From: Candidatus Enterousia sp.
Lineage (GTDB): Bacteria; Pseudomonadota; Alphaproteobacteria; Rs-D84
Reading direction: 5' to 3'
Assembly: GCA_045546155.1 (NCBI GenBank)
Contig: JAZQCG010000005.1
Location: 14,770 to 78,769, forward strand
DNA: 64,000 nucleotides
The position numbers and the translations under genes were made by a program. The notes under the pieces were generated by a model. That model was not told the origin of the DNA. It was given only the letters and a program-made list of their open reading frames with translations, and searched no databases. Below, piece after piece: positions 17,867 to 50,874 of this stretch. Position 1 is the stretch's first letter; every line of letters starts with the position of its first letter.

Positions 17867-18676
17867 TTATTCAGAATAATAACAATCACCCACAAACACT
17901 CCAGAACCCGTCGCATCGCTAAAACTGCCACCTGATGGAATATAGCAATCTGTCCTGGACTGTGCCCCTATTTTACCAGTTACTCCATACACACCACCTG
18001 ACGACGGACAGCGTTCACATGTTGTCCCATTGTAAAAATAGCCATCATTGCACTTCCACTGTAATGTTGCATTATGCCCATTACTATCTGTACATGTGGC
18101 CGTACTTGGGCATACTGCACACAGTGTGCTGGAACCACTGCCACTAACATAATAATATCCTGTGGGACACCCCCAGTCTTCATCCACAACCGCAGTACAA
18201 GTTGCTAACTTGTCATCTTCAAAATCATTTTTAAATTCAATTCCTCGTTTAACAATTGCATTATTTGAATTTCTAGACGACCAGTCTTCATATACCCCAT
18301 CCTCGCCAGCACGTCGACAAAAATCACAGGGAAAATCATATACATACATATTAGCGTCCGCTTCTTCAACACAAAATAAATTATTCCTTCCACCAATTAA
18401 ACATGTACCACCCGGTTCATCATACGACGAACAAGATGCACTCAAAAAACTCTTCGCTGGTCCATCAATATACTGCGCATCCATATCACAAAGCACCGCA
18501 TAATAATCTTCGCCATATTCATCATAATTAATACCATCGTGCCCCGTATTATCATCTGCGCCTGCAATCATTCCCCAACATAATTCACCGGGCTGTAATG
18601 TACAAATCTCCCAATAATCTGCCCGCGCCCCATAAAACATAAGAATACACACAACAAAACATACAAACTTTTTCAT
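17867..18676 (-). CDS. Secreted cysteine-rich protein, paralog of 38453-39064
   Basis: Signal peptide and more than 25 Cys. The C-terminal 62 aa (KCNDGYFYNGTTCERCPSSGGVYGVTGKIGAQSRTDCYIPSGGSFSDATGSGVFVGDCYYSE) is shared with the 38453 protein. Confidence 0.8.
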   Translation of the reverse strand: MKKFVCFVVCILMFYGARADYWEICTLQPGELCWGMIAGADDNTGHDGINYDEYGEDYYAVLCDMDAQYIDGPAKSFLSASCSSYDEPGGTCLIGGRNNLFCVEEADANMYVYDFPCDFCRRAGEDGVYEDWSSRNSNNAIVKRGIEFKNDFEDDKLATCTAVVDEDWGCPTGYYYVSGSGSSTLCAVCPSTATCTDSNGHNATLQWKCNDGYFYNGTTCERCPSSGGVYGVTGKIGAQSRTDCYIPSGGSFSDATGSGVFVGDCYYSE

Positions 18677-19000
18677 TTCAATCCTCCTGTTGTTTTTACG
18701 ACAAACAAAAAAACCACTGAAAAAATTTCAAGTGGTTGGAGGTTCGAAACAATTATAGAGAATTGTGGGCTTATTTATATATATCACCACCCTCCAACCC
18801 AGTTGGATTGGCAGGTTCAGACATATCTATAAAAAACAACACCACTTGGATAACACTTTGATACCCAGTGGTGCCGAAATTCATATTTATGCCTGTATTT
18901 CTATGTTGCGATGCAACATCTCTATAACGGGTTTCGACACCCCGCCAACAGAATCCCCATTGGCACAATAATTATAAACAAAAAAGACAGATTAAAGCAA
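18677..19000 (-). promoter_or_regulatory. Structured 5' leader, copy 1, with promoter and intrinsic terminator
   Basis: Promoter TTGCTT-18-TATAAT (19000-18971). P1 TCGAAAC/GTTTCGA, P1b TATAGAG/CTCTATA, P2 TCCAAC/GTTGGA. Terminator stem 18714-18735 plus U-run, then SD AGGAGG. See findings. Confidence 0.7.
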
Positions 19001-25669: not shown

Positions 25670-26110
25670 ATGGTTATGACACGCGACGAATTTTTATCTG
25701 CAATTAAATCCCGCGGTGCGTTTATTGCCCCTGCTGCGACACCACAACAAATTACAAATACAAATTCTGTTTTACAGCATATTCGCGCTGCAATCCTGCC
25801 GATGTTTATGATTGAATTTTTTGCAACAACATCTGGCATATCACTGGATTCTGGATATATATTTGGGCCAAATGAATTTGAAAACGGTTCACGCACCCCT
25901 GTTCCAGATATAGTAAGTGTTAACCGCGAATTTAGTACCCTGCCCGGCACAACTGGCAAAACACTGTTTGGTCGTAACGACTTGTTCTGGTTTGCATTTG
26001 ATACATTTGGCACATGCTATATGCTGGACAATCTATCATTACGTGTTTTACGCAAATACGACGATCCATATCGCGCGATGACCGATTGCTTGATTGCGGG
26101 GAAATATTAA
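25670..26110 (+). CDS. SMI1/KNR4 (SUKH)-like protein, putative immunity-type protein
   Basis: The pattern ...ITNTNSVLQHIRAAILPMFMIEFFATTSGISLD...GRNDLFWFAFDTFGTCYMLD resembles the SUKH family by eye. Confidence 0.5.
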   Translation: MVMTRDEFLSAIKSRGAFIAPAATPQQITNTNSVLQHIRAAILPMFMIEFFATTSGISLDSGYIFGPNEFENGSRTPVPDIVSVNREFSTLPGTTGKTLFGRNDLFWFAFDTFGTCYMLDNLSLRVLRKYDDPYRAMTDCLIAGKY

Positions 26111-26111
26111 A

Positions 26112-26318
26112 ATGAAAAAAATATCTGTATCTTTATCAGGGCATCAAACCAGTATAACCCTAGAACCAGAATTTATTGATGTGCTAAAACAAATCGCCAC
26201 CGCACGCGGCGTATCCATTGCATCAATTATTTGCGACATTGATAATAAACGAAACGCGGATACAAATTTATCATCTGCAATCCGCGTTTGGATTTTAAAC
26301 CAAGTCATGAAACATTAA
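26112..26318 (+). CDS. Ribbon-helix-helix protein (RHH_4-like)
   Basis: ISVSLSGHQTSITLEPEFIDVLKQIATARGVSIASIICDID...NLSSAIRVWIL matches the alphaproteobacterial RHH_4 pattern. Confidence 0.75.
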   Translation: MKKISVSLSGHQTSITLEPEFIDVLKQIATARGVSIASIICDIDNKRNADTNLSSAIRVWILNQVMKH

Positions 26319-27061
26319 TCTTTTGATTTAGTATCTTTATTAATTATAAAATTTCCAACTGCACCACCAACAACGCCAAGCCCACTAACCGTTGCACCAG
26401 TTTTATTTTTCTTGGTTGTTTCTTCTTTTTGTCCAGCCCAAATCTTAGCATCTTCACCATCGGGGTCCGCCAATGCCCGTGACAAAGACGCATACGCACC
26501 AGATGTAATTCCAACACCGACATCATCATACAAACCCGTTGTCGCAGAATCCAAAATTGGTTCTGATTCAATCCCGGGTTTTAGCCCCAGTTGCTCTTTG
26601 CGTTTTTTCAAATCATTTGCCAACATAACATATTCCGCATACAGCGGCACCAGTTCGCTTGCCCCCGGCAATTCAACATTTGTTTGGCCACCATGGATAT
26701 TCATACCCGCACCATAATCACATTTGAAAGTTGCTAAATACGCGGTCATATCCATTTCTGCGTCTTTATCTGCATTCTGTTCTGCCAGGCCCGACGCCAA
26801 CATCATCCCGCCTATACCACCTGCACCCATTGCCGCCGCCCCCAACATACGATTCGCCAACGATTGTTCTTTGGCTTTGGCTGCTTCGTATTTTTGTTCC
26901 AAAACAGACATTTCTTCATAAAGGGCAACAAATTCCCTCCCAGAAACTTCATTGTACACCCCAATATAAGGATTATCCATTTCCGACAACATAAACCAAT
27001 CCTGAGCCAACCCCACAAATGGAAAACACAACCCCATCAAAAACAAGGTTATTTTTTTCAC
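26315..27061 (-). CDS. Secreted/membrane hypothetical protein
   Basis: Signal peptide MKKITLFLMGLCFPFVGLA and Gly-rich hydrophobic segments. Second gene behind leader copy 2. Confidence 0.6.
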   Translation of the reverse strand: MKKITLFLMGLCFPFVGLAQDWFMLSEMDNPYIGVYNEVSGREFVALYEEMSVLEQKYEAAKAKEQSLANRMLGAAAMGAGGIGGMMLASGLAEQNADKDAEMDMTAYLATFKCDYGAGMNIHGGQTNVELPGASELVPLYAEYVMLANDLKKRKEQLGLKPGIESEPILDSATTGLYDDVGVGITSGAYASLSRALADPDGEDAKIWAGQKEETTKKNKTGATVSGLGVVGGAVGNFIINKDTKSKD

Positions 27062-27064
27062 CCT

Positions 27065-27958
27065 TTATCTCCTAAATATATGTCTTGAAAGGTCAAAATC
27101 ACGACCACTGATTTCTACTGATGGCAAAGTATTACTCTTCCACTCTTTGGGATTTTCATTTGAACGAACACTATATAACTTTTTCCCAAATGGCGACCCC
27201 TTTGGTTGCCTTTCAACAGACACAATATCATATTTACCAGCCAGTGTATCTTCCACTTCTTGATTTACCCAAGCATAATATTCATCATACTTATATGTAT
27301 CACATATCACCTCTATTCTTAAATTTTCACCAGTATAACCATCACTATCATGATTGGCATTATTGAGTAAAGATACATCGCAAGATATTCTTTTATTTTC
27401 TTCTGGAACATCTTTTGTAAATGAGACAATTCTCTCTTCATACAAAATACTTCCAGACAATTTGTCCGACATCCCCTTTTCGGTGTCAGACGACAAGGTT
27501 TCTTGTATTCTAACCGTATACTCAACAAAACCATCTGGCCAATGACAAATTTCCCATCCGTCTTTGAAACACTTTTTTTCGTCCAATTCTCCCCTTGATA
27601 ACCAATACTCTTCATACCAAGGATTATCTTCATATTTTAATTCACGGCCCATTTTTCCTGCCGCCGTTTTCAAATCTGATAAAAATTTATTTTTATAGTA
27701 TTCGTATGACAACTGCGCCAAATAAGAACGCATCCTTATTAATTTTACTTCATTATTTTCAACAGTATCTTCTAATAACTCGACATATTCTGGGTCTATC
27801 ACTCGCATTTTTTTTACTATATTTTCATAGTCTGACTGCAATTCAATTGCGATGCCCTCAACATCTGCCATCAGCAATTCTTTTTCCATTTGGACATCTT
27901 CTGCCCACACCGGACAGCAAAACATATACAACAAAAACACACACAAACCAAATCGCAT
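27065..27958 (-). CDS. Secreted hypothetical protein
   Basis: Signal peptide MRFGLCVFLLYMFCCPVWA and an acidic, Tyr/Glu-rich mature part. First gene behind leader copy 2 (SD GGAGGGG). Confidence 0.65.
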   Translation of the reverse strand: MRFGLCVFLLYMFCCPVWAEDVQMEKELLMADVEGIAIELQSDYENIVKKMRVIDPEYVELLEDTVENNEVKLIRMRSYLAQLSYEYYKNKFLSDLKTAAGKMGRELKYEDNPWYEEYWLSRGELDEKKCFKDGWEICHWPDGFVEYTVRIQETLSSDTEKGMSDKLSGSILYEERIVSFTKDVPEENKRISCDVSLLNNANHDSDGYTGENLRIEVICDTYKYDEYYAWVNQEVEDTLAGKYDIVSVERQPKGSPFGKKLYSVRSNENPKEWKSNTLPSVEISGRDFDLSRHIFRR

Positions 27959-28197
27959 TCACCCCTCCATTTGCAAAACAAAAACCACTGAATTTTTTTT
28001 CAAGTGGTTGGAGGTTAGAAACTATAAATCGGTATAGCGGGCTTATTTTTATATATCACCACCCTCCAACCCATGGTTGGAGTTTTTTCTACCTGGTTTA
28101 GCCCCAGGCACCGATTTCAAGGGTTTCTACGCCCCCGACACCAGACAAAACATCTGATATCAAACTGTGTTATATCACATTTTGCTTTCTTTATCAA
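27959..28197 (-). promoter_or_regulatory. Structured 5' leader, copy 2, with promoter and intrinsic terminator
   Basis: Promoter TTGATA-17-TATAAC (28197-28169) lies inside the end of the lnt ORF. P1 TAGAAAC/GTTTCTA, P1b AAATCGGT/ACCGATTT, P2 CTCCAACC/GGTTGGAG. Terminator stem 27985-28008. Confidence 0.7.
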
Positions 28198-30202
28198 TCA
28201 CGCACATCGCCAGGGATGACATCGCGGCAAATGCCAATATGATAATAAACCACCAATTCATACCAATTACCCGATATGGTGTCATATGTGCCCCCCATAC
28301 AAACCCATCTATGTGCCCAGATGCCCCAATTGGCATACTATCTATGATTGTGCCATCTGCGCTGATAAACGCGCTTATTCCCGAATAATTCGCACGAATA
28401 ATCGGCAATCCAGATTCGATTGCGTACCGACGCACCATATCCAAATGTTGATATGTCCCTGGTGTTTTTCCGAACCAGTTATCATTTGTAATATTAATAA
28501 TCGCATCCACCACCAAACCTGCATCGCGTGGAACAAGCGAATCGGAAAAAATAATTTCATAGCATATCGCTGGCGCAAAAACAAAGTCACGTCCCGATAT
28601 ATTCAAACTAATTAATTCCGGTCCATCCCCAGGGGCTAAATTTGCCGGACTTGGCAAAATCCCCAGCGGTCGATATTCACCAAATGGCACTAAATGAGAT
28701 TTGCTGTATACGCTTAAAATCCGGCCATTTTCATCCGACACAACCATTGAATTTTGTAATCCTAATGACGGTTTATATGTCGATGCCCCAACAATAACAT
28801 TTGTCCCCAGCGCCACCCCCAGCGGCATATCATCCCCATCAACCAAGACAAATGGATACGTTGTTTCCGGGTAAATGATTAAGTCTGGTCGCACATCCCC
28901 CACCCCCATAAATAATAATTTACCTAAATTCTCTTCGGCATTTTTTATTGCCTGTTCACGACTATGTGTTGCCTTTTGACTTTGTGATAACGCAGGCTGA
29001 ACAATTCGTATTACCTGGGGATTTAATTCAGCCCCAGCATCGGCGCGAATCATATTTTCACGCCCTGCGAACACGCCAACCAATCCCAACACAACAAACA
29101 CCATCAGTGTCGCAATATTCACGCGTTTGCGAAAACGTAACAGTTCCACCACCGCACAAGCAAAACCAACAATAACAAACGTTAACCCCATCGCCCCCCA
29201 TAACGACATTGAATTTGCCAAGACTGGCAATCCCATTGAAATATTAGCAATCGGATTCCATGGAAATCCTGTAAACAGCCATTCACGCAACCATAAAACC
29301 ATCACCCACACAGCTGCAAAGAAAAATGGACGGGCCGCAGTTTTCATGCGTATAGCGCGCAGTATCGCAAACGGCACACCAAATATTATTGCGCCCGCCA
29401 ACCCCAAACCAATGATTCCAGGCACTGTCCAAACGGCATATTGACTGGTTAATTCTGGCACAACATATATTGAATTTAGCACCCACCAAAACATAGATAT
29501 TCCATACATCGCACCAAACGGCGACACACGCAAAAACGCACCCCAAAAACCAACCTTTTTATTTGCGCTGACCGTCAACCAATACGCACCCATAAAACAC
29601 AAAATTGTCAACCACCACATATTAAATGGTGCAAAGCCAAACGCCGCAAACGCACCAAATACTGCGTATAGCGCATATTGCCAAAACGAATCTTCACGTA
29701 TTTTAAATTTATTTACAAACGACATCAACCGTGCACCCGGACACGCGCACACACAACTACACGAATCACAGCTATCTGAATCATACGGATTTTTTATTCC
29801 CAACTTCGCTAATATTTTTATTTCTTGTGATTCCATTTTTTTCGCCTGTTTATCGTCCAGATGGTCATACCCCAATAAATGCAGCACACCATGCACAACC
29901 ATATGCGCTGTATGTCCTGCAACAGATATATTTGCATCCTTTGCTTCACGTACAACTGTATCCAACGATATATAAATATCCCCCAACAAAACATCGTCAC
30001 CCAATTCAAAAGACAATACATTTGTTGGTGCATCCTTGCCACGCCAATCACGATTCAATGCATGAATTTCCGCATCATCGGTTAATATAATTGAAACCTC
30101 TGATTCTTTGTGTGCGGGAAAATTCTGCGCACACACGATTTTTTCAAAATCAATTTTGTATTTTTTCCAGCGTTTATCGTGTATATCAACAAAGACCTTC
30201 AT
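28175..30202 (-). CDS. ybeY-lnt: Fusion protein: endoribonuclease YbeY (aa 1-140) plus apolipoprotein N-acyltransferase Lnt (aa 160-675)
   Basis: A single uninterrupted ORF. The YbeY motif HGVLHLLGYDH is followed by its normal end ...GIKNPY. A 19-aa Cys-rich linker DSDSCDSCSCVCACPGARL follows, then a complete Lnt starting MSFVNK (ATG 29725) with E (YPETT), K (YSKSHLVPFGEY) and C (ICYE) catalytic residues. Confidence 0.8.
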   Translation of the reverse strand: MKVFVDIHDKRWKKYKIDFEKIVCAQNFPAHKESEVSIILTDDAEIHALNRDWRGKDAPTNVLSFELGDDVLLGDIYISLDTVVREAKDANISVAGHTAHMVVHGVLHLLGYDHLDDKQAKKMESQEIKILAKLGIKNPYDSDSCDSCSCVCACPGARLMSFVNKFKIREDSFWQYALYAVFGAFAAFGFAPFNMWWLTILCFMGAYWLTVSANKKVGFWGAFLRVSPFGAMYGISMFWWVLNSIYVVPELTSQYAVWTVPGIIGLGLAGAIIFGVPFAILRAIRMKTAARPFFFAAVWVMVLWLREWLFTGFPWNPIANISMGLPVLANSMSLWGAMGLTFVIVGFACAVVELLRFRKRVNIATLMVFVVLGLVGVFAGRENMIRADAGAELNPQVIRIVQPALSQSQKATHSREQAIKNAEENLGKLLFMGVGDVRPDLIIYPETTYPFVLVDGDDMPLGVALGTNVIVGASTYKPSLGLQNSMVVSDENGRILSVYSKSHLVPFGEYRPLGILPSPANLAPGDGPELISLNISGRDFVFAPAICYEIIFSDSLVPRDAGLVVDAIINITNDNWFGKTPGTYQHLDMVRRYAIESGLPIIRANYSGISAFISADGTIIDSMPIGASGHIDGFVWGAHMTPYRVIGMNWWFIIILAFAAMSSLAMCVIDKESKM

Positions 30203-30225: not shown

Positions 30226-32148
30226 TTATGCCATTTTTCTTTCTTCGCCATAAATCAAAACATCGTGAATTGCGTTTTGTTTGCGTATTTGTTTTATGCC
30301 ACTTTTGTATGCAGTCCGTCTTGCACCAGCCGAACGCATTTTTTCACTCAAACGTTTTTCAAAATTTTCATATGATTGCCCCGAATTACGTTTAGCAAGA
30401 TCAATATTTTCTTTGGCTTTGGCATAATGTTCTTGTTTTTCGGCATTATTACTTGCAGTATCACCTAATTTTTCACGACATAACGCCGCATTATAATATG
30501 TATACGCCTTAATACTATTCGGCATACCAGCAAACAAATCCGAACGTATCAATCCTTGAACAACTTCCAATCCCTGCTTATATTCTTGATTTTTGTAATA
30601 CGCAATAGACAAATTGCTATACACAATATAATTCTTTGGATCTTCTTCCAGCGCATCTTTAAACTTTTCTATTGCCCGATCATATTTTTCTTCAAAGAAT
30701 AAATTTTCGCCTTCTTCATTTAGTTTTTCAGACGCGCTCATTTCCACGACCTGCTCTGCCTGTGTATTTTCTATATCAGCGAAATCAACAACATCACTGC
30801 GGAATAATTTACCACTTCTTATGGTACGAACTTCATAATCCGTCATGTATGTTTTCACAGGCTTTTGTACAGTTCCCCTTGTTTCTCTATTTTGCTCTTT
30901 TTGCAACAGTTCATTTATATTATCCAGGTGAACCATCCCCTTAGCCTTTGATTTTCTATTTTGTGACTCATAAATCAACAAGCGTCCCCGCTCCATTGTT
31001 TGCGAATCAAAAACAGACAAATATTCACTATCTTGTTTCAAGACACTTTCTAGTGTGTATGGGGCTTCACTAATGGCATCTAAAATTGCATCATCGGATA
31101 TTTCCCCCAACATATACAGCGCACACACAGCATACTTATTTGGCATCCCACCCCATTGCGTACCGCGAATCTTGCCCAATTGTTTAACCAATAAATTTGC
31201 GATTTCTTTGGTACTTTTACCATTATTTACTGCGTCACGCACTGGCGCCCCAGAATTACCATTTGCAAAAGTATTTTCCCCCGCATTATATGCCGCCACG
31301 ACCAACGAAATAAACGTACGGGCTGGCATTTTTGCTGTGAACTGTCGTTTCATTTTCGGATATATTTCTTGACGACACCATGCTTCTGTTAACTTTTTTG
31401 TTTCATCAACAGAAATCGTTGAACCATTTCCAACCGAGCGTCCCAAAATTTGTTTTGCAAAATTTCTGTGTTTGGCATCAGCAATTGTAAAGCCTGCACC
31501 AAACGTCAATGTTCCACTTGTCCCATTATCATAATACGCAGTTTCAATGTATCCTTCGGTTAAAAACATATGCGCCACCACATATGGTGTAATAGCATCC
31601 ATTTGTTTTTCCCACTCTTCATCATCAAGCGATGGATCAATCATCAAGTTTTCCAGCTTATTTTCCCCCGTCAAATCTGCAACCCACTCTTTGACAGCAC
31701 CTTTTACCTTTCCCACGGATTCCTTAATTACAGAATCTTCCTGGGATAAATCAACCCCCGCAAGGGTTGCTGCAATCGCTATATAATAAGCAATATGTCC
31801 AACGAAATTCGGATTCTTTTTAACAAACTTACGCCACTGTCTTTCCTTGCCTTCTCTGTCGGTCTTTTTAATTTTTGCGAACAGTTCTTCTAATTTACGC
31901 GTTAAATGATTATCTAAGGTTATATATTTAGTTGTCCATAACAAGGCTATGGCCAATCCTGATGCGACCAGACCACCAACACGCGCACCCTTTTTAATTT
32001 TCTTAACAGGAATTTTTATCTGTGTTTCACCAATATTGATAATTTTATCAGGGGTATTTTCTGGAATTTTTTTATCCCGCAATTTACGTCCCGCACGACG
32101 CACGACTTCTATTGGTGCATTTACAATCTTTTCAAATTTTTTTGACAT
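30226..32148 (-). CDS. Membrane-anchored GH24 lysozyme-like domain protein with C-terminal TPR repeats
   Basis: Two TM helices. TEGYIETAYYDNGTSGTLTFGAGFT fits the T4/lambda-type lysozyme EG-x5-Y-x-D-x2-G...T-x-G-x-G motif. The C-terminus has TPR-like repeats (YDRAIEKFKDALEEDPKNYIVYSNLSIAYYKNQEYKQGLE...). Confidence 0.65.
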   Translation of the reverse strand: MSKKFEKIVNAPIEVVRRAGRKLRDKKIPENTPDKIINIGETQIKIPVKKIKKGARVGGLVASGLAIALLWTTKYITLDNHLTRKLEELFAKIKKTDREGKERQWRKFVKKNPNFVGHIAYYIAIAATLAGVDLSQEDSVIKESVGKVKGAVKEWVADLTGENKLENLMIDPSLDDEEWEKQMDAITPYVVAHMFLTEGYIETAYYDNGTSGTLTFGAGFTIADAKHRNFAKQILGRSVGNGSTISVDETKKLTEAWCRQEIYPKMKRQFTAKMPARTFISLVVAAYNAGENTFANGNSGAPVRDAVNNGKSTKEIANLLVKQLGKIRGTQWGGMPNKYAVCALYMLGEISDDAILDAISEAPYTLESVLKQDSEYLSVFDSQTMERGRLLIYESQNRKSKAKGMVHLDNINELLQKEQNRETRGTVQKPVKTYMTDYEVRTIRSGKLFRSDVVDFADIENTQAEQVVEMSASEKLNEEGENLFFEEKYDRAIEKFKDALEEDPKNYIVYSNLSIAYYKNQEYKQGLEVVQGLIRSDLFAGMPNSIKAYTYYNAALCREKLGDTASNNAEKQEHYAKAKENIDLAKRNSGQSYENFEKRLSEKMRSAGARRTAYKSGIKQIRKQNAIHDVLIYGEERKMA

Positions 32149-38452: not shown

Positions 38453-39064
38453 TTATTCACTGTAATAACAGTTCTGACCATATTCCCACGTTCCAAAAGA
38501 ATCTGAAAATTCTGTACCTGATGGAATATAGCATTCTGTAATACTGGTTGCGCCACTAGATTTTGTCGTTCCATACACCCCACCCGACGACGGACAACGC
38601 TTACATTCCATCTTATCCCTATAATACCCCTGAATACAGGTAAAAGTATCATTTATATAGTCTATATTTTCCATTGCCCCATCTACTATCTCTTCACAGG
38701 TAAAAGACCATTCACTACATAACTTAAATGGACGCACCCCATTATAGCACGTGCTATTTCCGGGGGTACAATCCCCTATACCAATACAATAAGTCTTTCC
38801 CTCCGTTGTAACAATTTCACAATTTTCAACAAATGGATCACAGTCCACATATTCATATTCTATATATTTACTGCATACCTGTGTTCCCATCATTGCCGGG
38901 CTGTCTTCATTTTGATTACAAAATATGTCCCCATCACTATTGATGTAACATATATAAACAGAGCCCTCAATACTCAAACGTATTCGTCGCACTTCTGCCC
39001 AAGAATCGCCAAAAGCGGCCCCATACAGTATTCCAGAAATTATAAAGATTTTAAATTTATTCAT
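38453..39064 (-). CDS. Secreted cysteine-rich protein, paralog of 17867-18676
   Basis: Start at MNKFKIFIISG... with SD AAAGGAGG. C-terminal module TCIQGYYRDKMECKRCPSSGGVYGTTKSSGATSITECYIPSGTEFSDSFGTWEYGQNCYYSE. Confidence 0.8.
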   Translation of the reverse strand: MNKFKIFIISGILYGAAFGDSWAEVRRIRLSIEGSVYICYINSDGDIFCNQNEDSPAMMGTQVCSKYIEYEYVDCDPFVENCEIVTTEGKTYCIGIGDCTPGNSTCYNGVRPFKLCSEWSFTCEEIVDGAMENIDYINDTFTCIQGYYRDKMECKRCPSSGGVYGTTKSSGATSITECYIPSGTEFSDSFGTWEYGQNCYYSE

Positions 39065-39347
39065 TCTTTGACCTCCTTTGATTTTCACGAATGAAAAAAC
39101 CACGCGTTTTCACGAGTGGTCAGGAGGTTCAGAACAATCATCAAGAATTGTGTGCTTATTCAATATATTCGCAACCCTCCTGACGAAAATATCAGGAGTT
39201 TTTTATCGCCTAAAAACGAATACGAAAAAACACGCTATTGGGCGCGCCGAATTTCGTTTCCAAACGCTTGATGCACAGGTTCTGACACCTCATCATAGCA
39301 AAACACTATAACACAGAGATTATAACCGATAGTTTTTGTTTTCGCAA
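39065..39347 (-). promoter_or_regulatory. Structured 5' leader, copy 3, with promoter and intrinsic terminator
   Basis: Promoter TTGCGA-17-TATAAT (39347-39319). P1 GAGGT-g-TCAGAAC/GTTCTGAACCTC, P1b CATCAAG/CTTGATG, P2 CTCCTGA/TCAGGAG. Terminator stem 39099-39120. Confidence 0.7.
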
Positions 39348-50167: not shown

Positions 50168-50599
50168 TTAATTAACCAGGTTCAATAATATCGCAGATCG
50201 TAATTCTAAATCCGTATCCGCAAAATATTCCGCACAGGTGTACCCGCAACTGTATAGGCAGTTTGCAGTATTTTTACCAGCAAACACCCACTTCGATACC
50301 GCAGGTTCAGTCATCATACACCAACAATATATGTTATCTGTCGCATTATCTGATACAGTTAACCAGCTAATTGGTTCACCATCGGGTTGATCAGAACAGG
50401 CCGAAACACCAGATACACTTATAGTTGTACCGGTGAATACATCACACGCATTACCCCAATTAACATCACCAAAATTAGTTCCACCATTGTAACACCATGT
50501 CATATCTGGTTCGTCGTTCAACGCCACGCATTTTTGTACCGCCAACGCCGGCGTGGCAAGCAACGCACCCACCGCGGTTAAAGTTAAAAGTTTTTTCAT
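50168..50599 (-). CDS. Secreted Cys-rich protein
   Basis: Start placed at ATG 50599 (MKKLLTLTAVGALLATPALA), 8 nt after SD AAGGAG. The ORF-track start at 50608 is a GTG inside the SD. The mature part has 12 Cys. Confidence 0.7.
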   Translation of the reverse strand: MKKLLTLTAVGALLATPALAVQKCVALNDEPDMTWCYNGGTNFGDVNWGNACDVFTGTTISVSGVSACSDQPDGEPISWLTVSDNATDNIYCWCMMTEPAVSKWVFAGKNTANCLYSCGYTCAEYFADTDLELRSAILLNLVN

Positions 50600-50874
50600 C
50601 TGTTTCACTCCTTTTTGTTTATTCGCGAAAAAACAAAAACCACCGAATAAATTCGAGTGGTCAGGAGGTTAGAAACAATCTCAAGTATTGCGTGCTTATT
50701 CAATATATTCGCAACCCTCCTGACGCAAATATCAGGAGTCTTTCAACAGAATACGCCCCCACAATGTTTTTCAACACAGGTTTATATTCCATCGCTTGAG
50801 TGAGGTTTCTACGCCCCATCACGATAAAATCATCGTGACATATATATTATAGCCAATTGTTTACTATTCTGCAA
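50600..50874 (-). promoter_or_regulatory. Structured 5' leader, copy 4, with promoter and intrinsic terminator
   Basis: Promoter TTGCAG-17-TATAAT (50874-50846). P1 TAGAAAC/GTTTCTA, P1b CTCAAG/CTTGAG, P2 CTCCTGA/TCAGGAG, P3 TTGCG/CGCAA. Terminator stem 50640-50660 plus U-run. Confidence 0.7.

Follow-up and report, generated by a model that had tools for sequence, protein, structure and literature searches.

A multi-copy structured leader RNA of Candidatus Enterousia with the features of a candidate transcription attenuator

The leader RNA between lnt and ORF1

The DNA studied is a stretch of 64,000 nucleotides from Candidatus Enterousia sp. (assembly GCA_045546155.1, contig JAZQCG010000005.1, positions 14,770 to 78,769 of the forward strand), and this whole stretch is referred to as the window. 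The element in question is a structured leader RNA, termed copy 2, that lies at 28197-27959 on the minus strand between the 3′ end of a ybeY-lnt open reading frame (ORF) and two genes, ORF1 and ORF2. An earlier note on this DNA had proposed that copy 2 is one of several copies of a portable regulatory module, that its promoter lies within lnt, and that the module is tied to exported proteins. Direct reading of the minus strand located every element of copy 2 that the note had listed. The features are as follows.

28175-30202, minus strand: ybeY-lnt, an ORF of 675 amino acids with Pfam matches to YbeY (5e-35), LNT_N (5e-19) and CN_hydrolase (1e-17)
28169-28197, minus strand: predicted promoter of copy 2, with a -35 element TTGATA (28197-28192), a 17-nt spacer containing a TGn extended -10, and a -10 element TATAAC (28174-28169)
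28177-28175, minus strand: TGA stop codon of lnt, inside the 17-nt promoter spacer
28137-28161, minus strand: P0, a 5′-terminal hairpin at the predicted transcript start (RNAfold minimum free energy structure; predicted transcription start site ~28164-28160)
28110-28135, minus strand: 5′ strands of the clamp, namely g1 GGGG (28135-28132), P1 5′ strand GUAGAAA (28130-28124) and P1b 5′ strand AAAUCGGU (28117-28110)
28091-28109, minus strand: P1a, a variable hairpin, represented in other copies by 1-3 hairpins of differing length
28063-28082, minus strand: P2, formed by c1 CUCCAACC (28082-28075), the loop AUG, and g2 GGUUGGAGG (28071-28063)
28040-28060, minus strand: P3, a 3-bp stem GGU/GCC with a near-invariant internal and terminal loop, GAUAUAU...AAUAAG
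28022-28037, minus strand: P4 hairpin CUAU/AUAG, of which the loop ACCGAUUU (28033-28026) is the P1b 3′ strand
28006-28021, minus strand: P1 3′ strand UUUCUAA (28021-28015) followed by c2 CCUCCAACC (28014-28006)
27974-28009, minus strand: intrinsic terminator AACCAC(U)UGAA/UUCAGUGGUU followed by a U-run, with a bulged hairpin at 28009-27980
27956-27968, minus strand: Shine-Dalgarno (SD) sequence GGAGGGG (27968-27962) and ATG start codon of ORF1 (27958-27956)
27065-27958, minus strand: ORF1, 297 amino acids, with a signal-peptide-like N terminus and 4 Cys in the mature part
26315-27061, minus strand: ORF2, 248 amino acids, with a signal peptide, two Gly/Ala-rich hydrophobic segments and 1 Cys

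The structured RNA between the promoter and ORF1 of copy 2 comprises ~185 nt. The core pairing of P1 is AGAAAC/GUUUCU, and P2 reads CUCCAACC-AUG-GGUUGGAG (28082-28064). Strand g2 is common to both of the pairings between which the RNA could switch, while the c2 strand can pair with g1 in one fold (fold A), with g2 in another (fold B), and possibly with the SD. The terminator hairpin has a G+C-containing stem and directly precedes the U-run UUUGUUUU, and the hairpin begins with the four bases that end c2; a consensus terminator scan had missed it because the stem carries a one-base bulge that the scan disallows. A 5′ hairpin equivalent to P0, of differing sequence, was found in all copies inspected.

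The copy-2 promoter covers the final seven codons and the stop of the ybeY-lnt ORF, so that the proposed overlap with the 3′ end of lnt was borne out, and this arrangement conforms to the placement of promoters across the leader family. The promoter predicted from the sequence, TTGATA-17-TATAAC, matches the sigma70 consensus at 10/12 positions in addition to the TGn, and it was missed by a consensus promoter scan because the scan demanded T at position 6 of the -10 hexamer, which is C in this case. The -35 and -10 elements are where they had been placed, but the -10 element ends in C, while its relatives carry TATAAT. The promoter stretch is identical at 28/29 nt to that of the orthologues L028 and L032, both of which also follow lnt, whereas identity is 81-86% over the 129 nt of coding sequence ahead of it. 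The single promoter difference, at 28169, is T in L028, L032 and the related contigs of runs X13 and X25, and C in the window; the copy-2 promoter of this strain may therefore be weaker than those of its orthologues. Across the family, a sigma70-like match of at least 9/12 was present in 122/147 copies, and in 105 of these 122 promoter-bearing copies the -10 element ends 31-36 nt ahead of the P1 strand. The distance in copy 2 is 40 nt because its P0 hairpin is longer.

Transcription was checked in assembled contigs from three putative RNA runs, and such contigs define neither transcript ends nor depth. A 496-nt contig from metatranscriptome X27 spans 27900-28130 and runs on into a diverged ORF, not into lnt, and the leader and the ORF start accordingly lie on one transcript contig. 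This lends slight and indirect support to the start site near 28162 that the note had expected.

Copies, hosts and cargo genes

A covariance model built on 19 related sequences found exactly four copies of the leader in the window, all on the minus strand (87-129 bits, E values 1e-22 to 1e-34). The three other than copy 2 had first been located by BLAST and pattern searches at ~18.7, 39.1 and 50.6 kb.

18677-19000, minus strand: leader copy at 18.7 kb, a long form with extra hairpins and promoter TTGCTT-18-TATAAT, followed by a gene for a 269-amino-acid Cys-rich secreted protein (17867-18676)
39065-39347, minus strand: leader copy at 39.1 kb, a UGA/UCA variant of the switch helices with promoter TTGCGA-17-TATAAT, followed by a gene for a 203-amino-acid Cys-rich protein (38453-39064)
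50600-50874, minus strand: leader copy at 50.6 kb, a UGA/UCA variant with promoter TTGCAG-17-TATAAT, followed by a gene for a 143-amino-acid Cys-rich protein (50168-50599)

The proteins encoded behind the 18.7-kb and 39.1-kb copies belong to one Cys-rich family and that behind the 50.6-kb copy to another. The Cys-rich secreted family that follows many of the leaders, represented by the window ORF at 38453-39064 (minus strand) and by the ORF downstream of the leader in L001, gave weak matches to Ephrin_rec_like, a eukaryote-type Cys-repeat domain (E values 2e-4 and 2e-5).

The cargo of copy 2 is of a different kind. ORF2 begins 3 nt past the ORF1 stop, and the two are therefore taken to be an operon. 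Neither protein has a Pfam match, and BLASTP showed them to be unrelated to each other and to the Cys-rich families behind the other three window copies. The Cys content of the mature proteins is 1.5% for ORF1 and 0.4% for ORF2, which agrees with the earlier description of this cargo as Cys-poor proteins with signal-peptide-like N termini and without relatives among the other leader-linked proteins. ORF1, with only six close relatives in a large protein database, belongs to a lineage-restricted and fast-evolving family, while ORF2 is part of a conserved family whose 337 homologues are all hypothetical or unnamed. AlphaFold2 models were made, as the note had suggested, and were of low confidence (mean predicted local distance difference test score 61.5 for ORF1 and 50.3 for ORF2, the ORF2 model being mostly helical); a Foldseek search with the ORF1 model gave no significant match in the PDB, the best, with an E value of 0.038 and a template modeling score of 0.25, being meaningless.

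The genomic contexts of three ORF2 homologues, at four loci, were then compared. An ORF1-like gene lies directly upstream in 4/4, and it is preceded by a leader scoring 122 bits in L042, 90 bits in L041 and 62 bits in L044, with a partial match at the end of L043. In L041, L042 and L044 the proteins are 52-64% (ORF2) and 25-30% (ORF1) identical to those of the window, and the leader-ORF1-ORF2 units of these diverged genomes occupy other chromosomal sites, for example after tmk. The retention of the unit at other sites in diverged genomes points to an old, vertically kept arrangement, and the notion that copy 2 is a recently moved module is not supported. Judged from these contexts, only the position beside lnt is lineage-specific.

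An exact-pattern scan of one genome per species gave 40 loci, and a looser pattern gave more than 116. The covariance model found 48 copies in the first 40 related loci, and the full set comprised 164 distinct copies after removal of duplicates, from metagenome-assembled genomes (MAGs) of gut, rumen and fecal origin. The MAGs are labelled Alphaproteobacteria, 'Rickettsiales' or Candidatus Enterousia (order Rs-D84), an order with genomes below ~1 Mb (about 0.75-1 Mb) and a predicted dependence on partner cells (PMC12306168). Mis-binning is the probable reason why some leader contigs carry the bin labels Muribaculaceae, Bacteroides fragilis or Bacteroidia. Several copies per MAG are apparent, with ~9 in one MAG by a tally of scan matches. 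Three leaders occur within 8 kb in several loci (L018, which is CAZJGX010000001.1, L112 and L111), each before a different Cys-rich secreted protein. A divergent sub-type (GGUUGGAGA/UCUCCAACC, with a continuous 5-bp P3) precedes a lipoprotein gene in L034 (1335-1482, minus strand) and L013 (7613-7759, plus strand), and in both loci it stands back to back with a standard copy.

No Rfam 15 family reached its gathering threshold anywhere in the window and no riboswitch model matched. The phage and plasmid collections gave no blastn match to the leader, and an origin in either was rejected on this basis. No earlier description was found in the literature searched, and this appears to be a previously undescribed family of structured leader RNAs, whose support from covariation equals that of accepted riboswitch candidates.

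A co-oriented ORF with an SD follows the leader in 152/164 copies. These lie ~45-95 nt past the start of c2, which leaves no space for a second promoter. The ORFs fall into 42 BLAST clusters, and the idea of a reusable module before unrelated genes is thus borne out. The largest cluster, with 53 copies, consists of Cys-rich secreted proteins. The second contains small cytoplasmic XRE-type helix-turn-helix (HTH) proteins (Pfam HTH_3/HTH_31), with 35 copies plus a few small clusters, and further cargos include lipoproteins, an EcoRI-like adenine methylase, a UvrD-like helicase and a superinfection-immunity protein. Genes of the defense or mobile-element type (methylase, helicase and immunity protein) stand directly behind leaders in L006, L024/L030 and L014. 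A crude signal-peptide test was positive for 87/152 cargo ORFs, which is an underestimate. The proposed tie to exported proteins consequently holds for the main class of cargo, but not for the quarter or so that are XRE regulators, nor for the methylase, the helicase and the immunity protein. What unites the cargo seems rather to be that these are accessory, interaction and regulatory genes.

Two pairings of the c2 strand

Pair counts were made on a covariance-model-guided alignment of 49 rows, one of them a spurious reverse-strand row. In fold A, the nested structure, 93.4% of cells were paired and double-sided changes were seen in 23/35 pairs across the 49 sequences. The covariation score was 0.371, compared with 0.145 for shuffled alignments, none of which reached 0.371 in 500 attempts, and with 0.03-0.05 for controls in which the partners had been slid by 1-3 columns. 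Double changes were present in all six fold-A helices. Both sides change in 7/11 pairs of helix 1 (P1 together with g1:c2) and in 5/5 pairs of both helix 2 (P1a) and helix 6 (the terminator); helix 4 (P3) is 100% paired, with G-C replaced by U-A in 14 copies, and in helix 5 (P4) U-A is replaced by A-U in 20 copies. The most frequent state at several pairs is G-U, indicating that selection acts on this RNA strand.

These data bear on whether the leader could be a repeated DNA element (MITE- or REP-like, that is, a miniature inverted-repeat transposable or repetitive extragenic palindromic element, or else a recombination site) rather than a functional RNA, an explanation to which we attach hardly any weight. 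It would account for the multiple copies and the inverted repeats, and the CUCCAAC/GUUGGAG strands are superficially like integron attC cores, the weak Rfam match described below being to an integron-borne small RNA (sRNA). However, the compensatory changes keep the pairing, and the dominant G-U pairs would be A-C mismatches on the other strand. In addition, the orientation relative to promoter and cargo is fixed, the UGA/UCA variant has no AAC/GTT cores, the phage and plasmid collections hold no match, and the leader-ORF1-ORF2 unit is vertically conserved. An integron attC site in particular, suggested by the RYYYAAC/GTTRRRY likeness, was rejected because the UGA/UCA variant is missing the cores and the spacing does not fit.

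The P3 loop, GAUAUAU...AAUAAG, is the most conserved sequence of the family, and it may resemble a UAA/GAN internal-loop motif. The P1b helix of the earlier note is also real: in every copy the strand after P1 is complementary to the P4 loop, although the sequences vary. Among 35 unique copies the longest Watson-Crick match averaged 7.06 nt for cognate strands and 3.2 nt for non-cognate strands. Because the 3′ strand of P1b is the P4 loop itself, P1b competes with the P4 hairpin, and P1b together with a full P4 would be either a strained pseudoknot or two alternatives. Sequence conservation is concentrated in the core of fold B, whereas the clamp (g1, P1 and P1b) only covaries. As in riboswitches, there is a conserved structured domain with covariation support.

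The pairing that defines fold B, g2:c2, was compared with the c1:g2 pairing (P2) across the 48 copies. While c1:g2 comprises 5-9 contiguous pairs, g2:c2 is paired at 9/9 positions in 48/48 copies, and this holds for five haplotypes. The compensatory haplotypes are GGUUGGAGG/CCUCCAACC, GUCAGGAGG/CCUCCUGAC and GGUUGGAGA/UCUCCAACC, with further variants in L041 and L044, namely GGCAGGAGG/CCUCCUGCC (L044) and a G-U variant. In the GGAGA/UCUCC clade the altered c2 base is unpaired in fold A and paired in fold B, a change that is hard to account for unless fold B is under selection.

One explanation that dispenses with switching is a constitutive 5′ structure, in which a leaky terminator or insulator, combined with an mRNA stabilizer, would give fixed low expression, and g2 and c2 would be complementary only because c1 and c2 each have to pair with G-rich strands. 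In its favor, fold A is strongly preferred in all copies, the family has no ligand-type gene association, and copy 2 stands directly after lnt, which has no other terminator, so that it could insulate against read-through. We nevertheless regard this as unlikely, since g2:c2 is better conserved than c1:g2, since compensatory changes such as GGAGA/UCUCC are not needed by fold A, and since a P3 loop with so little variation looks like a site for specific binding or docking.

The c2 strand connects the alternative helices to the terminator. Its first 4-5 bases pair with g1 in fold A, and its last 1-4 bases form the base of the terminator stem. Fold A with the terminator was the minimum free energy structure in 34/34 copies, and forcing g2:c2 cost 6.5-21 kcal/mol (mean 14.1). 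For copy 2 including P0, fold A was calculated at -71.4 kcal/mol and fold B at -54.4. When the last 4 nt of c2 were withheld, the terminator hairpin weakened from a mean of -10.4 to -4.5 kcal/mol, and that of copy 2 from -8.9 to -1.2 kcal/mol. Terminator and antiterminator are therefore mutually exclusive on this platform, c2 being common to g1:c2, g2:c2 and the terminator base, as far as sequence and thermodynamics can tell.

When the fold was extended to 216 nt, including the SD, part of c2 appeared, on reading the dot-bracket structure, to reach over the terminator hairpin and pair with the region of the SD. Control could then be mainly translational, with the CCUCC of c2 (or c1) pairing with the downstream GGAGG and the terminator being incidental; c2 indeed matches an anti-SD perfectly, and strong SDs of the GGAGG type precede the cargo genes. 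We consider this very unlikely as the principal mechanism. The terminator hairpin and its U-run are conserved with covariation in all copies and lie between c2 and the SD, and c2 beyond CCUCC (AACC/UGAC) matches g2, not SD regions. Such a pairing fits better as a second layer of attenuation than as a competing mechanism.

The interpretation that we favor, with a probability of roughly 0.6, is that copy 2 is a cis-acting leader that would control the downstream operon by transcription attenuation, off by default and turned on by an effector. Transcription would start at the leader's own promoter within the 3′ end of lnt. In fold A, the default and off state, g1, P1 and P1b would clamp onto L4, P1′ and the CCUC of c2, with c1 paired to g2. 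This would leave the AACC tail of c2 free, so that the terminator nucleates and RNA polymerase stops ~25 nt before the SD. In fold B, the on state, g2 (GGUUGGAGG) would leave c1 and form a 9-bp helix with c2 (CCUCCAACC), closing a three-way junction that also contains P4 and the invariant P3 loop. Since the g2:c2 helix would capture the base of the terminator, the polymerase would read through. Fold B would also hold the anti-SD-like CCUCC of c2 off the SD, and the terminator and c2:SD layers would work in the same direction. Because fold B is ~14 kcal/mol less stable than fold A, an effector, which may be a small molecule, an ion or a protein, would have to stabilize the g2:c2/P3/P4 junction or open the g1/P1/P1b clamp, and the concentration of conservation in the fold-B core favors a factor that recognizes this core. 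We infer from these considerations that the RNA switches, that it does so in the off-to-on direction, and that an effector exists.

Several observations weigh against attenuation by an effector-driven switch. In no copy is fold B the minimum free energy structure, and its stability is always far below that of fold A. The overlap between g2:c2 and the terminator is 1-4 nt, and a weakened hairpin could still form where stems are long. P1b and P4 cannot both form fully in a simple geometry, leaving the exact fold ambiguous. The AAC and UGA variants of g2, c2 and c1 define two clades, and the independent compensatory events are therefore few, ~4-5. Finally, the cargo genes, in their 42 clusters, have no shared metabolic theme that would indicate a ligand, and the gene associations do not point to one ligand or pathway as those of a riboswitch would. 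A leader peptide or upstream ORF was also considered. AUGs are found close to g1 and a GUG downstream of g2, but the copies differ both in whether they have these starts and in the frame of the starts, and the possibility was rejected.

Related RNAs and neighboring genes

By analogy, the closest functional counterpart of the leader is the Bartonella Brt/Trp system, and either common descent or convergence is possible. Brt1-9 are multi-copy RNAs of ~200 nt with a terminator, located directly before XRE-family trp genes (Tu et al. 2016, PMC5387305; PMC8070961). The Brt family was defined there by BLAST and a common probe, deletion of the 3′ stem-loop of Brt1 raised transcription of the downstream trp1 (PMC8070961), and a heme-responsive reporter was reported (PMC5387305, PMC8070961). 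Brt and the gut leader are both alphaproteobacterial, multi-copy and ~200 nt long, with their own promoter, a 5′ hairpin, and a 3′ terminator-like hairpin ~15-30 nt before a gene that has no promoter of its own. The outer elements also come in one order in both: the 5′ hairpin is followed by a G-rich strand, P1, an internal loop and P1b, with P1 and P1b covarying, and after these come P1′, a C-rich strand and the terminator hairpin.

The Brt clamp was re-derived from 114 unique Brt copies, of which 80 were sampled, at loci fetched with the published probe. Cognate matches exceeded non-cognate ones for both P1 (7.0 versus 4.9 nt) and P1b (6.9 versus 4.7 nt). A description of this covarying clamp was not found in the available text of PMC5387305 or PMC8070961. 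The quartets of G-rich and C-rich strands are GGGAG, CUCCC, GGGA and UCCC in Brt and GGGG, CCUCC, GGAGG and CCUCC in the gut leader, and the internal CUCCC...GGGA hairpin of Brt could swap partners in a similar manner. XRE HTH cargo is common to Brt and about a quarter of the gut leaders (35 of the 152 with an ORF), although not to copy 2. In contrast, the interior of Brt lacks the conserved GGUUGGAGG-P3-P4 core of the gut leader, and reports of Brt are confined to Bartonella and to positions ahead of XRE genes, whereas the gut family precedes at least 42 clusters, mostly of secreted proteins. No sequence homology between the two was detected: the covariance model found no Brt copy in 10 loci, and nhmmer searches of Brt loci with the gut-leader profile and of gut loci with the Brt profile gave no match at E<=10. 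In Bartonella spp. (L146-L265) as many as six Brt copies stand in tandem within 8 kb, and copies are also present on the plasmid contig pVbh_WD121.

The Brt literature also bears on a further alternative, in which each leader would be a stand-alone sRNA gene acting in trans, for example with its CCUCC and GGAGG strands on the ribosome-binding sites of other mRNAs, and leak-through would be all the transcription that reaches the downstream genes. In Bartonella, Brt RNAs are plentiful and there is hardly any transcription of the trp genes behind them (PMC5387305), and a dual function has been proposed for Brt1. Each gut copy has its own promoter, a protective 5′ hairpin and a terminator that looks efficient. 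The stable fold is the one that terminates, copy number is high, and the SD-like and anti-SD-like strands are conserved. We still think an sRNA of this kind rather improbable, as the C-rich and G-rich strands are all paired in fold A with no obvious exposed seed, a perfectly conserved g2:c2 helix overlapping the terminator would have no role, and the position of 152/164 copies directly before a co-oriented ORF, with no space for a promoter of its own, would be hard to explain.

Among Rfam families, the best match of copy 2 was sRNA-Xcc1 (RF02221), with 34.4 bits and an E value of 3e-4 in 601 nt against a gathering threshold of 53 bits. The divergent L034 copy scored 31 bits, while the 18.7-kb and 39.1-kb copies gave no match at E<=10 and four other loci none at E<=1. 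The leader was not filed as a member of sRNA-Xcc1 because its score is below threshold and the other copies do not match. Xcc1 is located upstream of, and co-oriented with, the accessory toxin gene symE in Xanthomonas integron cassettes (bioRxiv 10.1101/2025.06.18.660453). It shares with the fold-B core a 9-bp G-rich/C-rich closing helix around two hairpins, the first with an AUA..AA-rich loop, and a U-rich joiner followed by CACC. However, sRNA-Xcc1 is only 88 nt long and lacks the 5′ clamp domain and c1, and its context is that of gamma- and betaproteobacterial integron cassettes; no symE or integrase was found among the leader cargo proteins inspected. Two further candidates were discarded. 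Twister-like words (GGAGGG, AAGCCCG) occur, but the ribozyme models of Rfam gave no match at a cutoff as loose as E<=10, and the EGFOA motif (RF02955), a gut-metagenome RNA and an sRNA family studied in Firmicutes-type examples, is in Rfam and gave no match.

Two riboswitch types offer parallels. ON-type terminator/antiterminator riboswitches, such as the pbuE adenine riboswitch, share nucleotides between the closing helix of the junction and the 5′ arm of the terminator, as the gut leader does, and the cyclic di-GMP-I and -II riboswitches likewise occur in many copies per genome before heterogeneous genes, often for surface or secreted proteins. The gut leader differs from riboswitches in having an additional upstream decoy or clamp domain that makes the off state very stable; its cargo set gives no metabolic clue, and no riboswitch model in Rfam matches it.

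More tentatively, and with considerable doubt, the leader may represent a new class of effector-sensing riboregulator, in which an ON-switch three-way-junction core would bind a host- or partner-derived signal and which would provide the main regulon for secreted, surface and XRE genes in Rs-D84/Candidatus Enterousia, sharing ancestry and logic with Brt. If so, there would be an alphaproteobacterial 'clamp-and-core' superfamily of attenuators and a comparative framework for the orphan Brt system. Reduced genomes are expected to encode few regulators, which makes the leader, at a density of 4 copies per 64 kb in the window, a candidate main switch for interaction with partner cells or the host gut. 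The products that it would gate in these uncultured organisms, Cys-rich secreted proteins and small XRE regulators, number in the dozens. Since Brt and the gut leader use the same outer clamp architecture, the comparison also provides a handle on the Brt/Trp virulence switch of Bartonella. The termination point, derepressing mutations and compensatory mutations are predictions that can be tested in heterologous systems.

Regarding the neighboring genes, ybeY and lnt are usually separate neighbors. In the window, the YbeY endoribonuclease is fused with apolipoprotein N-acyltransferase (Lnt) through a Cys-rich linker, DSDSCDSCSCVCACPG. Directly upstream of ybeY-lnt, at 30226-32148 on the minus strand, is encoded a 640-amino-acid protein with a phage-lysozyme-like domain and C-terminal TPR repeats. 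At the other end of the locus, related contigs (X27 and X13) swap 128 nt at the 3′ end of ORF2 (26319-26448) for 119 unrelated letters, and this variable C-terminal segment of ORF2 adjoins a convergent ORF of 74 amino acids at 26094-26318.

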